This document shows positions 55,896 through 60,114 of a stretch of DNA of 64,000 bases, in pieces. The stretch spans positions 2,661 to 66,660 of the forward strand of contig CAAFZY010000040.1 of assembly GCA_900767645.1 (NCBI GenBank). Direction: 5' to 3'. Both the position numbers and the translations under genes were made by a program. How positions within the stretch are numbered: the stretch's first letter is position 1; every line of letters starts with the position of its first letter. Under the pieces are notes generated by a model. It ran no database searches, was not told the DNA's origin, and was given only the letters and a program-made list of their open reading frames with translations. The DNA comes from Alphaproteobacteria bacterium (GTDB lineage: Bacteria; Pseudomonadota; Alphaproteobacteria; RF32; CAG-239).

Positions 55896-56687
55896 ATGTA
55901 TTTATGGGTTGTATTAGCAACGTTTATTACGGTTTTGCTGTCATATAATTTGTCAGTAAGACCGGATATGGACAGAGCTTTTGCAGAAACAAAAGCAAGC
56001 GTTGTTATTGCCAAATTTAGGGCGTTGCATAACGGGGTTAAAGACTATTTAAATTCTCAAGCGCCTGAAAAAACAGGTCAGGCTCGTGTAACATATTATC
56101 CCGGTACCGGTGTAAATGTTTCAACACCGGAAGGTTCGCAAGCTTCATCTTTAACAGTTGATGACATCAGAAATTATTTGCCGGTCGGCTATATTAAGGC
56201 AGATGAAACCTTAGACGATATTGCCAACATTACCGGCGGCGGAAAAATTGTCAGTAAGGTTTTTTGCTTTGACGAGGGCGAAACCAATGTACAATGCACT
56301 TCCGGAGTTGACGGAAGCTGTTGCAGCAATGAATGTATTGCCGATGACGATTGTTCCAGTATATATGTTGTTTCGTTTACACAAATGCCCACAAGGTGGA
56401 TTAATAAAATTTCCAATATGCCGAATGCCGATATGATGGGCGCCCTAACCCATATGCGCGGTTATGGCAAAGATATCGGCTATACCGATATTAAAAACGG
56501 CAAAGTGATTTTGAGCGGCGGACAAGCCGTTCAGCATTATGACGAGTACGGCAATCCGGTTGGCGAACGAGCTTTTGAAAGTTTTGAAATTTTCGGAGCA
56601 ATTAAAAACGACGCTGATTTTCAGGATATGGGCTGTGACAAAGAAAATGTTCATTGCTTGTTTACAATACAACAAATTTACGGTTAG
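55896..56687 (+). CDS. Hypothetical Cys-rich protein with N-terminal membrane anchor, possibly pilin-like; first gene of a two-gene operon
   Basis: Good RBS gaggtg, and an in-frame stop 9 nt upstream fixes the start. The N-terminal ~20 hydrophobic residues are followed by an amphipathic helix resembling a pilin alpha1. The C-terminal region carries 12 Cys, including a 'CFDEGETNVQCTSGVDGSCCSNECIADDDCSS' cluster. Confidence 0.45.
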   Translation: MYLWVVLATFITVLLSYNLSVRPDMDRAFAETKASVVIAKFRALHNGVKDYLNSQAPEKTGQARVTYYPGTGVNVSTPEGSQASSLTVDDIRNYLPVGYIKADETLDDIANITGGGKIVSKVFCFDEGETNVQCTSGVDGSCCSNECIADDDCSSIYVVSFTQMPTRWINKISNMPNADMMGALTHMRGYGKDIGYTDIKNGKVILSGGQAVQHYDEYGNPVGERAFESFEIFGAIKNDADFQDMGCDKENVHCLFTIQQIYG

Positions 56688-56697
56688 GAGAAAACAA

Positions 56698-59600
56698 ATG
56701 AAAACGCAATATAAAAACTTTATCAGTAAAGTGAACCAGACCGGCAGCCTTATGATTGAGGCAATGGCAATGTTGGCGTTAATTTCATTAGTTACGCCTA
56801 CTTTGTATAAAAAGTCGGCTGAACGAACAACCGAATTGCAGGATATTAACACCGCAACGCATGTTCGCACCATTATGAAAGCGGTTGACAACTATGTTAC
56901 AGCCAACTATCAGAGCTTGCTTGAAGATCAGCTTCGTAACGACGGCGCCGTTTATGAAGTTGACCTTGAACACGGAGGAACAACCGGCGGCATTCATGAC
57001 TTTTTCCCATACGGCTATAAGTTTGATGATTTGAAAAACTTCGGTATGCCGAAAGTTATGTTAAAACGGCAAGGGTTATCAATTACCTCTTTTGTTCAGT
57101 TACCTAAAAAGTCAGATATCGGCGAAATGCGTGCCGCTCGTATTGCCTCAATGGTAGGCAGCAACGGCGGTTATGTTACCGACAGCAAAAACGCGCAAGG
57201 CGTGGGAGGTGTTTGGAGCTTAACGCAGGCCGATTTGGACGCCTTAGGGTTTGATACCAACAAGGGCTCGGTGGTTGTGGCGTCATCCGATGCTATTAAT
57301 TCGGCCTCTTCCGGCGCGCTTGAAAATGAAAAATATTTGCAAAGAACTCGTGTCGATTCGCAAGACCAGTTATGGCGCAACACAATGGTTACCGACCTTT
57401 ATATGGGCGGTGTTACCGGTGTTGACGATATGTATAAAATTTTGGGTGTCGATCAGTTGATTATGGGTAGCACCGACACGGTAAACAACACGGAAAGCTT
57501 AGTTTTAACCGAAGACGCGCAAGGCGGCGGATCGGCTTGGATGGCGGGCGCTTTGTCGGCCTTGAACAATGCCTTTAAGCTGGAAGGCGATGCCGATAAC
57601 CCGACACTTACATTTACCGGCAATTCCGGTACCATTATGTCGGCAGATACTGTATCTTTTGACTTATACCCGGGGTATAACGGCGCGGACGGAACCGTCG
57701 GGCTTGAAGTTGAGCCGTTCGGACAAACCGTTACCACTGATTATTCCACCACGGTAAAAAATGATTTAACCGCAACCGGCAATACGGCTGTGGCAACCGG
57801 CGGAGTTGCAAACACATTTAAAGCAGGTCCGGACGGTAGCTATATTACCGCTGAAAATGAAAAAGTTTCATTGCAGGGCGGACAATTGGAAGTTTTAGCC
57901 AATGGTGAAAACGGTGTTTCAACCACCAATATCAAAACCGCTAACACCAATTTAACCGGTAATGTTAAAGTTGGAGTGGGCGATGTGGCTCCGACCGTTG
58001 TTAATAATCCGCGGCTTAATGTTCAGGGCGATGCGTATGTTGCCAATAACTTAGAAGTGGGCAACACTTTATATACTCAAAAATTTAATGCCGCAGAGCT
58101 TCATGCCGGCGGTGACGCAGCCAACAGCGCCGATAATGAGCGTTGGTTGCATGCAACCCGTACCGGTGTTACGGTTACCAGTCCTGATACCAAAAACACT
58201 CGTTTAGTAATTTCAGCCGATGAAACCGGCTTATATAATCAGGACGGACGCGAAAGCACGGAAAGTTCGGCAGTGGTGTTAGGCGCAAGCGGCGCCAGCC
58301 TGCGGGCTAAACAAATGGCGGAAGTTTATACCACTGATACTGACGGTAATGTTAAATTGCAAGAAAACGCATTGATTATTGACGGTAAAACCACCGGCGA
58401 TAACAAAGCCGATATTACCGCCAACGCTAATGATATTAACTTTAACGCTGCTACCACTTCGGTAAATGACGGTATCTTTCAGGTTAGAGGGGCAACGGCG
58501 GATTCTAATCAGGAAAACAGCTTTTATGTAAATACGGAAAATAACGGCTTGGTTTTGGCGGAAGCCAACCGCACCACGATTAAACCGCGCGCTTTTCATA
58601 ATGGAGATAAACGTATCGGCGGTGCGTTTGATGTCCGCGACAGCGCCGATAGAAAGATTTTGAATGTTATGCCGAACGGTTTAGAAGGAGCAGTTGACGA
58701 AAACAAATATCCATACCCGATTGGTACGGTTGATATTGACAGCCAGTCATTCAGCTTATCGGATATGAGTGGTGTCGGACACCGCATTTTAGAAGTTGAT
58801 ATTGACAATTCTTTGTCACAAGCGACAGATGATAATAATTCTACCCGCGGGAGCGTTTATATCCGTCGCGGCGCGGTTGAATTAGAATCGCCGAGCGGCA
58901 CCGGATATGTGGCTGATGCCGGCGTTGGCTATATTGAAGCCGGACGTTTTGTGGCAAACACCAAGTTTGACGGCACGAAAATTGATGACCCGACAGATGC
59001 ATATTCAATAGACTACAATAACGATAGATGGGGAGTAGGTGCATCTGATGGTGCTTATGACCGCTATATGGTTAATCCTGCGTATACTTCGGTTATGCAT
59101 GATATTAAGCTCACCACCCGCGGCGGCGCGCGTTTGAGCGATATTTTGCCTGACTTTATCAATAAAGGTATTTATGTTGTAAATAATACTTACGTTGATA
59201 CCGGCTTTAGTTTGGATAGTATTGTTGCCACAGGAACTGAAGGGGGTAGAATTACGGTTTCAGCTAATGCCGAGGTTAAAGATATTGACACCATACAAGG
59301 CAGTATCGGCGGTAAAAACTTATGGGCTTCGCCGTTTATGGGCGTGGTTCCGGCGCCGATATGTCCTCCGGGGCATGCCCGCGTGATTACCATTACGCCG
59401 GCCGGCTTTTTAATGTCGCAAGCCGGACAAATGGTTAAAGAAGAACACTATGTCGGGGATAAGCGTTTTGTTGTTGATGAAACCAAAGAATTAAATAAGC
59501 TCGGTGATGTTAATTTGCCGGATAATGAAACCACAATTACCGGTGCGTATTCTACCAGCACATCAATCGCCGACGCTGCCGGCAACAGCCGCCAAATATA

Positions 59601-60114
59601 CTATCTGGGACACTCAACCGAGCCGTCGGCAACTTATGGCGGCTCGCCGTACTCGCCGACTCCGCTTTACTTTCAGCAAAGCACGTGGTTGAAGAGCCGT
59701 GTTCAGCCGCAAGATAATGACAAAGCAGGCTCATGTAATCCATCATTAGGCAGTGGCGAAGGTTGCACTAACTTTGTCGGGTGGTCGGCGATTATGGGAT
59801 TTGCGTATCCGGTAAGTTTGTATAAAAATATTATTCAAAACATTATCGGAAGCTTGCCGGCGGATGGCGATGTTTATTGGAACATCTTTCCGGTCAGAGT
59901 TAAAACTCTGGAAGCTTATGCCACGGTTTATTGTTATTTTGATCGGACTAACATATATTATCAAAAGGGTGAAAAGGGCTTACAAGATCAATATACCGAT
60001 AAATACGATCAATTAAATAAATTCAGGATGAGTACTCCCGGAAATCGTACAAAAGACAGCACTTACCTTGATAGGTTAAATGATCCGAGCTTAAAATATA
60101 AAGAACCGTGGTAA
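56698..60114 (+). CDS. Giant (1138 aa) prepilin-type protein: class III (type IV pilin-like) signal peptide plus a large G/T/N/D-rich fibre-like domain
   Basis: The N-terminus 'MKTQYKNFISKVNQTG|SLMIEAMAMLALISLVTP' has a short basic leader, Gly at -1, Glu at +5 and about 20 hydrophobic residues. That is the canonical prepilin peptidase substrate architecture. An RBS aggag precedes the ATG, which lies 10 nt after the upstream gene. The ORF track's upstream start at 56539 would overlap that gene in another frame. Confidence 0.6.
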   Translation: MKTQYKNFISKVNQTGSLMIEAMAMLALISLVTPTLYKKSAERTTELQDINTATHVRTIMKAVDNYVTANYQSLLEDQLRNDGAVYEVDLEHGGTTGGIHDFFPYGYKFDDLKNFGMPKVMLKRQGLSITSFVQLPKKSDIGEMRAARIASMVGSNGGYVTDSKNAQGVGGVWSLTQADLDALGFDTNKGSVVVASSDAINSASSGALENEKYLQRTRVDSQDQLWRNTMVTDLYMGGVTGVDDMYKILGVDQLIMGSTDTVNNTESLVLTEDAQGGGSAWMAGALSALNNAFKLEGDADNPTLTFTGNSGTIMSADTVSFDLYPGYNGADGTVGLEVEPFGQTVTTDYSTTVKNDLTATGNTAVATGGVANTFKAGPDGSYITAENEKVSLQGGQLEVLANGENGVSTTNIKTANTNLTGNVKVGVGDVAPTVVNNPRLNVQGDAYVANNLEVGNTLYTQKFNAAELHAGGDAANSADNERWLHATRTGVTVTSPDTKNTRLVISADETGLYNQDGRESTESSAVVLGASGASLRAKQMAEVYTTDTDGNVKLQENALIIDGKTTGDNKADITANANDINFNAATTSVNDGIFQVRGATADSNQENSFYVNTENNGLVLAEANRTTIKPRAFHNGDKRIGGAFDVRDSADRKILNVMPNGLEGAVDENKYPYPIGTVDIDSQSFSLSDMSGVGHRILEVDIDNSLSQATDDNNSTRGSVYIRRGAVELESPSGTGYVADAGVGYIEAGRFVANTKFDGTKIDDPTDAYSIDYNNDRWGVGASDGAYDRYMVNPAYTSVMHDIKLTTRGGARLSDILPDFINKGIYVVNNTYVDTGFSLDSIVATGTEGGRITVSANAEVKDIDTIQGSIGGKNLWASPFMGVVPAPICPPGHARVITITPAGFLMSQAGQMVKEEHYVGDKRFVVDETKELNKLGDVNLPDNETTITGAYSTSTSIADAAGNSRQIYYLGHSTEPSATYGGSPYSPTPLYFQQSTWLKSRVQPQDNDKAGSCNPSLGSGEGCTNFVGWSAIMGFAYPVSLYKNIIQNIIGSLPADGDVYWNIFPVRVKTLEAYATVYCYFDRTNIYYQKGEKGLQDQYTDKYDQLNKFRMSTPGNRTKDSTYLDRLNDPSLKYKEPW

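Follow-up and report, generated by a model that had tools for sequence, protein, structure and literature searches.

A candidate giant type IVb minor pilin encoded with a leaderless, cysteine-rich partner in uncultured gut Alphaproteobacteria

What might a protein of more than a thousand residues do behind what looks like the N-terminus of a type IV prepilin? This question is raised by a two-gene operon in a 64,000-nucleotide stretch of DNA from an uncultured gut alphaproteobacterium (assembly GCA_900767645.1, contig CAAFZY010000040.1, forward-strand positions 2,661 to 66,660; here called the window), in which gene 1 encodes a 263-residue, Cys-rich protein and gene 2 a protein of 1138 residues. 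An earlier, sequence-only reading of the operon had taken the larger product for a giant pilin or tip subunit of a pilus encoded elsewhere, and this proposal is strengthened here by a signal that is invariant across the family, by structural matches of the N-terminal domain and by pilus genes found in related genomes. The product of gene 2 is, in our view, probably a modular type IVb minor pilin of giant size, likely a tip adhesin or fibre, with the gene 1 product as its leaderless, Cys-rich membrane partner.

The open reading frame (ORF) layout proposed for the two proteins was confirmed in its coordinates and in the start of gene 2 (Table 1). Although the gene 2 frame is open over 56539-60114, its 1138-residue reading begins at the ATG at 56698, and we regard this as the true start because a Shine-Dalgarno sequence, AGGAG, overlaps the stop codon of gene 1, the intergenic gap is 10 nt and all homologues begin at the equivalent position (MKTQYK...). 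The two genes are translationally coupled. A promoter-like site with an extended -10 element lies 78 nt 5' of gene 1. When ORFs from 85 related loci, each taken with 10 kb on either side, were clustered, 79 of 82 loci had a gene 1 homologue immediately upstream of the giant gene and in the same orientation, the median distance between the two being -7 nt. The neighbouring genes vary by subclade (a nitroreductase gene and proS-pheT, as in the window; ftsZ and ftsA; or rpsU and rplI), and since the surroundings change in this way, the conserved unit is exactly gene 1 plus gene 2.

Table 1. Positions of the two-gene module and its parts within the window (aa, amino-acid residues of the gene 2 protein).
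Feature	Coordinates	Strand	Description
Promoter-like site	55789..55818	+	GTTACA-18-TATAAT with TG extension; consensus scan, 10/12 matches; consensus match only
Gene 1	55896..56687	+	263-aa partner protein; leaderless N-terminal transmembrane helix and Cys-rich periplasmic domain; 8 Cys
Gene 2	56698..60114	+	1138-aa giant pilin-like protein; 4 Cys
Leader peptide, aa 1-16	56698..56745	+	MKTQYKNFISKVNQTG; basic/neutral residues, Gly-1 last
Predicted α1 helix, aa 17-78	56746..56931	+	Ser+1, Glu+5 (E21); α1N aa 17-34; amphipathic α1C
Conserved N-terminal domain, aa 79-260	56932..57477	+	Pilin-like α/β head at about 85-200
Variable β-rich middle, aa 261-720	57478..58857	+	66% G/T/N/D/V/S/A, Cys-free, no internal repeats detected
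Conserved C-terminal region, aa 721-1138	58858..60111	+	Block 785-830 and 4 conserved Cys

The argument for a pilin starts at the N-terminus of the gene 2 protein, which the sequence-only reading had given exactly: MKTQYKNFISKVNQTG up to the putative cleavage site and SLMIEAMAMLALISLVTPTLYKK beyond it, with Gly at -1, Glu at +5 and about 20 hydrophobic residues. A class III signal is defined as a hydrophilic leader ending in Gly or Ala, followed by 20-25 mainly hydrophobic residues, usually with Glu at +5 (PMC10191384), and the protein has each of these descriptive features, its leader being hydrophilic and ending in Gly and its hydrophobic run (SLMIEAMAMLALISLVTPTLY) carrying the Glu as E21. 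The hydropathy peak of the protein spans residues 16-36, with a Kyte-Doolittle mean of about 2 in 15-residue windows. Across the family, a G-x4-E motif with a hydrophobic run is present in 124 of 126 representatives of clusters formed at 50% identity, with S, G or T at +1; the two that lack it are truncated gene calls. Leaders range from 8 to 16 residues among these 124 representatives, and G16 is at least 90% conserved. Because this N-terminus is the only one of its kind in all six frames of the window and is retained in such distant relatives, the motif is not a chance occurrence. The signal was nevertheless overstated when it was called canonical: it is invariant in the family, but Pfam N_methyl (PF07963) and Pfam TadE, hidden Markov models (HMMs) against which the isolated N-terminus had been proposed for checking, do not match it even at E<=10, and neither does NCBIfam TIGR02532. 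The PilS-type pilins of the same clade also fall under the N_methyl cut-off (14-17 bits against 21.2).

Both gene families are large and exclusive to uncultured gut and rumen Alphaproteobacteria, where their members are labelled 'hypothetical proteins'. Gene 2 relatives are encoded by 264 GTDB species representatives from this group, including Candidatus Scatocola and 'Azospirillum sp. UMGS63'; the lineage is common in the guts of humans, livestock and wild animals. A profile of the first 295 residues recovers 627 clusters at 50% identity, 205 of them at E<=1e-30; in the best 150 of the 627, complete members are 740-1470 residues long, mostly more than 900, and in every case the domain occupies the very start of the protein. 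Conservation, scored on a 54-sequence alignment reaching down to 41% identity, divides the protein into three parts: residues 17-260 are highly conserved, 261-720 variable and 721-1138 again conserved. In the first part, E21 does not vary, nor do most positions between 21 and 58, and the amphipathic α1C is nearly invariant to about residue 60.

If the protein is a minor pilin, its lineage should possess a pilus for it to join. The genes described here were observed in relatives and related contigs, and not in the source genome. A regular-expression scan of the related loci found six pilin-like ORFs of 199-240 residues with N-termini such as NGRSMVEMLGVLAIIGVLS. Two of them, 7.6 kb (L014) and 1.2 kb (L030) upstream of the module's first gene, score 54-63 bits against Pfam PilS (cut-off 22) and 47-50 bits against Bundlin; these are type IVb major pilins of about 220 residues. 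Their family comprises more than 7800 clusters, one of which NCBI names 'type 4 pilus major pilin [Alphaproteobacteria bacterium]'. In an hhalign comparison, residues 6-33 of the giant protein align in register with the leader and α1N of this PilS-type pilin, G16 pairing with G8 and E21 with E13 (E 0.0013). A candidate processing enzyme is also encoded: in L050 the giant gene is followed, at a distance of 2.3 kb, by the gene for a 237-residue, multi-transmembrane Peptidase_A24 protein (59.9 bits, cut-off 26.5) with a GGGDIK motif, and an A24 peptidase is likewise present in L035 and L037.

Scanning metagenomes with the clade's A24 peptidase led to assembly machinery on a rumen contig, L096. 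Here, over positions 92-10714, the peptidase orthologue is encoded beside PAP_PilO (68 bits), a weakly PilP-like protein of 576 residues, a 600-residue T2SSE ATPase (216 bits), a T2SSF platform protein (85 bits), a 205-residue ORF, an ABC transporter and, on the opposite strand, a 319-residue PilT-like T2SSE protein (107 bits). This is the R64 pilO-P-Q-R gene order. In clade members other than L096, the peptidase gene stands alone between groEL and pth. The contig is tied to the clade by its peptidase, which is 88.6% identical to that of L097, where the pth and groEL neighbours match those of L050, and by its ABC transporter, which is 66% identical to one in L077, a giant-gene locus. Since the major pilin genes stand alone among housekeeping genes and no T2SSE gene lies within 10 kb of any giant or pilin gene examined, the genes of the system are scattered, which is unusual for type IVb pili (PMC10191384). 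Large secreted proteins are encoded beside two of the major pilin genes, one of 1840 residues with a pectate-lyase-like adhesive domain (L030, 1371-6893) and one of 1615 residues with cEGF repeats (L089, 15586-20430), and both are possible additional surface adhesins in this clade.

Structure prediction had been proposed as a check on the expectation of an N-terminal helix followed by a beta-helical fibre. On the helical half of that expectation, the AlphaFold2 models of the full-length protein and of residues 1-295 (predicted local distance difference test score, pLDDT, of about 80 over residues 45-200) both place a long helix at residues 2-78 followed by an α/β head, with strands at 119-125, 128-135, 157-160, 166-168 and 192-197 and helices at 143-153 and 177-182 (pLDDT about 80). 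Residues from about 200 to 260 are conserved in sequence yet modelled at pLDDT below 50. In structural comparisons this predicted domain is matched best by type IVb pilins, along with TcpB and CofB, two large minor pilins, and the other matches are coiled coils attracted by the long helix; the scores are modest, and we regard the matches, made with a model, as supportive rather than decisive. The fibre half was not borne out. The remaining 900 residues or so combine a low-confidence model with weak matches, and when Foldseek compared the full model with the PDB no match was significant, those at the top (best E 0.016) being to two phage structures, the gp34 fibre of T4 and the tail tip of T5. 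Comparing the protein with itself revealed no internal repeats, which gives no support to a solenoid built of regular sequence repeats.

The composition of this region was described correctly as rich in G, T, N, D and V: G, T, A, D, V, N and S, the seven commonest residues of the protein, make up 66% of residues 261-720. Further on, the most conserved block of the whole protein, residues 785-830 (window 59050-59187; YDRYMVNPAYTSVMHDIKLTTRGGARLSDILPDFINKGIY), shows about 99% column identity and is modelled at pLDDT below 50, and it could be an oligomerisation or partner interface beyond the reach of a monomer model. The Cys residues noted towards the C-terminus are present at 889 (ICPPGH) and at 1013 and 1023 (GSCNPSLGSGEGC), but they number four and not three, as Cys1079 (VYCYFD) had been overlooked; all four are conserved. 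Searches for known families were negative throughout. The full-length gene 1 and gene 2 proteins match nothing in Pfam and NCBIfam at E<=1, and a gene 2 profile matches nothing at E<=10 among all PDB chain sequences, TcpB and CofB included; when the PDB sequences were searched with profiles of the full-length protein, its N-terminus and the partner, only two chance matches to a neopterin epimerase were returned.

The partner had been described as having a hydrophobic N-terminus that lacks a leader, together with a dense Cys cluster, and this description stands. The gene 1 protein opens straight into a hydrophobic helix (MYLWVVLATFITVLLSYNLSV), and an in-frame stop 12 nt 5' of its start makes a leader impossible. 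Six of its eight Cys residues fall within residues 124-153, and C124, C134, C142, C143, C247 and C254 are conserved. We also considered a Sec-cleaved secreted protein, cut at an A-F-A/E site at residues 28-30, and rejected it: the AxA-like site is not conserved in homologues, which makes a signal anchor more likely than a cleaved signal peptide, and the transmembrane helix is invariant (M1 Y2 W4 A8 T9 ... R22 D24). The likeness of the gene 1 protein to pilins is unproven, as hhalign against the gene 2 N-terminal domain gave no more than a YLPxGY motif, which lies about equally far from the N-terminus in both proteins (probability 14%), and, against the clade's major pilin, nothing. To call the protein an anchor, as the sequence-only reading did, is a guess; most likely it works in the membrane as a chaperone or docking partner of the giant pilin, or else is assembled into the tip together with it. 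No counterpart of such a leaderless partner has been described in type IVb systems.

How would a pilin of this size reach the cell surface? The prepilin would be inserted in the inner membrane through its class III signal (by Sec and the signal recognition particle, SRP), after which an A24 prepilin peptidase encoded elsewhere would cut behind Gly16 and leave Ser at +1 and Glu at +5 on an α1 helix of about 60 residues that carries a small head (about residues 17-200). By way of α1, the pilin module would dock into a filament whose major pilin is of the PilS/bundlin type. The type IVb machine building this filament would be R64-like, consisting of PilO, a PilP-like protein, an extension ATPase, a platform protein and a second, PilT-like ATPase. 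The bulk of the subunit would place it at the tip, where it may prime assembly as TcpB and CofB do and display about 900 β-rich residues as a fibre, comprising a species-variable middle stalk and a strongly conserved, disulfide-bonded C-terminal domain that would form the adhesin or effector-binding end. The gene 1 product would be a bitopic inner-membrane protein with a disulfide-rich periplasmic domain, acting with the giant pilin in the membrane.

Several observations weigh against a type IVb minor pilin. Its gene would normally adjoin that of the major pilin inside the pilus operon, whereas gene 2 lies outside such an operon and, unlike TcpB and CofB, is paired with a leaderless partner in a two-gene operon of its own. 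The module is an isolated unit surrounded by housekeeping genes, in three or more different contexts. The 64-kb window holds no gene for a pilin, T2SSE, T2SSF, secretin or A24 peptidase, just 5 of 85 loci have a pilin-like gene no more than 10 kb from the module, and no T2SSE gene was found within 10 kb of any giant gene (85 loci) or of any major-pilin gene examined. The product shows no detectable sequence homology to TcpB, CofB or LngB, its N-terminus fails the signature HMMs, its alignment with the major pilin has an hhalign probability of only 18% over 28 columns and most of its model is of low confidence (mean pLDDT 60). Given these departures in operon position, sequence homology and HMM matches, we describe gene 2 as most likely working like a type IVb tip minor pilin, while sharing only some of the features of that class.

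One alternative is to see in gene 2 an ordinary signal-anchored (type II) inner-membrane protein whose large periplasmic or cell-envelope domain is unrelated to type IV filaments, with G-x4-E serving some other transmembrane role. The failure of every prepilin HMM, the lack of pilus genes in the window and, for most loci, within 10 kb, and the position of the module next to flagellar fliL and fliM in 34 loci would all suit such a protein, but that neighbourhood is limited to one syntenic subclade, and 124 of the 126 representatives carry the hallmark of prepilins, a Glu five residues past an invariant Gly at the cytoplasmic edge of the transmembrane segment. The predicted fold matches type IVb pilins, the N-terminus is in register with the clade's own PilS-type pilin and an A24 peptidase gene is adjacent in three loci, and we consider a plain membrane anchor quite unlikely. 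More remote still is a Tad (type IVc) pseudopilin of the TadE, TadF or TadG kind, cut by a TadV/CpaA-type peptidase. Tad pili are common in Alphaproteobacteria, the clade's 237-residue peptidase is short and matches nothing outside its peptidase domain, as TadV does, and the G-x4-E spacing is compatible with Flp and TadE sites too. However, neither the TadE (PF07811) nor the Flp model matches the gene 2 protein, the major pilins of the clade are PilS/bundlin-type proteins of about 220 residues rather than Flp, and the machinery contig encodes PAP_PilO and a GspE/PilB-like ATPase of 600 residues rather than TadA, TadB and TadC, which together make a Tad origin very improbable.

Other readings accept the class III signal and question where the protein ends up. 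It may act outside the PilS-type pilus, either by forming a short pseudopilus-like or fibre structure of its own with the gene 1 product or as an effector exported by the type IVb machine, using the same peptidase and machinery in both cases. That the module is always apart from the major pilin and machinery genes, that it has an obligate partner with a pilin-like, leaderless helix, that the β-rich part weakly resembles phage spike and fibre proteins and VgrG/Rhs folds, and that block 785-830 is conserved to an extreme degree suggestive of a machine-like interaction are all points in its favour; we hold it to be improbable. A related and similarly doubtful suggestion is that the two proteins constitute a new type IV filament tip or priming complex, or a self-contained surface fibre that borrows only the prepilin peptidase. 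As a tip complex, gene 1 would supply a leaderless cap that lacks Glu5 and needs no peptidase, and its strictly conserved, free N-terminus (M-Y-x-W...) might, speculatively and by analogy, pair with Glu5 of the processed giant protein. Large minor pseudopilins of the GspK/PilX type have a pilin fold to which an extra domain has been added, and they cap the filament; GspK lacks Glu5, as the gene 1 protein does, but it has a cleavable leader where gene 1 has none, and there is no sequence or profile similarity. The logic of the first subunit in the toxin-coregulated pilus (TCP) offers a parallel for the cap idea (PMC5207764). Such a pair would nucleate a type IVb pilus and present a fibre of more than 100 kDa, possibly for attachment to host mucosa, other microbes or prey.

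Read as a giant type IVb minor pilin, gene 2 has precedents. TcpB (423 residues) and CofB are large type IVb minor pilins in which a pilin domain is followed by C-terminal β domains, and they are located at the tip and initiate assembly (PMC5207764). Minor pilins of this type form a homotrimer at the tip. With TcpB, CofB and LngB the gene 2 protein shares a class III signal with Glu5, an N-terminal segment that resembles the cognate major pilin (here, the pilin of relatives) and, by prediction, a pilin domain followed by extra β-rich C-terminal domains with disulfides, and its presumed tip or priming role is theirs. It is 2-2.5 times larger, at 1138 residues against 423 for mature TcpB and 496 for the CofB chain 4qs4. 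The hosts differ as well: TcpB belongs to Vibrio cholerae TCP and CofB and LngB to the CFA/III and Longus pili of enterotoxigenic Escherichia coli (ETEC), all enteric pathogens, whereas gene 2 comes from an uncultured gut alphaproteobacterium, and a literature search on pili in RF32-type gut Alphaproteobacteria returned nothing relevant.

Modular pilins are widespread: a survey counts over 1200 such proteins with 264 architectures, none of them longer than 860 residues (PMC8179133), and in the PilB and PilC pilins of S. sanguinis (Raynaud et al. 2021) a small pilin likewise carries grafted functional modules that are shown at the tip. These proteins are, however, defined by IPR012902 and a recognisable extra domain, whereas neither the signal of gene 2 nor its roughly 900 added residues match any signature, and its family, mostly above 900 and reaching 1470 residues, exceeds the surveyed maximum. 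The R64 thin pilus, with PilS as the major pilin, PilV as the minor pilin adhesin, PilU as the peptidase and PilO/P/Q/R as machinery, is encoded in a cluster on a plasmid, in contrast to the chromosomal, scattered genes of the gene 2 clade; there is no shufflon, and the gene 2 protein does not match the Pfam family for the shufflon/PilV N-terminal constant region at E<=1. Thus the concept of large or modular minor pilins is known, and the gene 2 family stands apart in five respects: its size, the lack of a signature for signal or modules, the separate operon with a leaderless partner, the scattered genes and the host lineage.

The surroundings of the module deserve a brief account. In the window, the claim that pilus-assembly genes are missing was upheld by a Pfam scan of 38 other ORFs, which found only housekeeping genes (among them those for a RodZ-like protein and a phosphoglucomutase as well as parAB, gidAB, mnmE, rho, dnaE, eno, serS, hisS, prfA, ptsP and hda), a small recombinase island and a pump of the MacAB-TolC kind. 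Around the module in a syntenic locus (L001), Pfam identifies a MipZ-type ATPase, an S11 carboxypeptidase, the nitroreductase, proS and pheT. In 34 syntenic loci (L036, at 3595-9039 and 13203-13949, and 33 others) the module is divergent from a block with fliL, fliM, DUF6468, a MgtE_N/MotE-like gene and a gene for a secreted protein of 857-957 residues. A flagellum-linked function, which the divergent upstream fliL-fliM-DUF6468 genes might suggest, was considered and rejected: in other subclades the module is found by proS/pheT, ftsZ/ftsA or rpsU/rplI, and we treat the flagellar neighbourhood as synteny specific to one lineage. About 130 nt downstream of the module in the L036 subclade, a conserved 250-residue secreted ORF that matches no family is possibly a third operon member. 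Directly 3' of the giant gene in L035 (13428-13769) is a tandem repeat, whose minus-strand translation gives repeated PRMTSNTIFWLNAHS units and which is probably non-coding DNA.

Elsewhere in the window, positions 26295-30000 are probably a small island integrated at a tRNA gene: tRNA-Leu(taa) at 26295-26381 is immediately followed by a serine recombinase/resolvase gene (26444-27040, minus strand) and a stretch of low GC content (0.33-0.34, with strong AT skew) that contains small ORFs without annotation and a 606-residue DUF6782 metallopeptidase-like ORF (27637-29457). The chromosomal replication origin region probably lies at 9700-10200, where the GC skew changes sign and its cumulative value reaches a minimum near 10 kb; the switch has coaE/dnaQ-like genes on one side and rho on the other, and parB-parA-gidB-gidA-mnmE lie a short way upstream. 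Two further ORFs between dnaE/serS and an AMMECR1-domain gene, at 17742-18581 (279 residues) and 22275-23993 (572 residues), have no Pfam match.

Large modular pilins are a route by which simple type IV filaments gain new functions, and the few that have been characterised have about 400-550 residues. The gene 2 family is about twice that size, is missed by current signatures and extends across hundreds of species of an uncultured gut lineage. Adding its sequences to the N_methyl and IPR012902 seed alignments would recover a class of pilins that is now annotated as 'hypothetical'. If the protein is indeed a type IVb tip adhesin, the system would show that the genes for a type IVb pilus can be dispersed instead of forming a cluster, and the gene 2 product would be a prime candidate for determining what these bacteria attach to.

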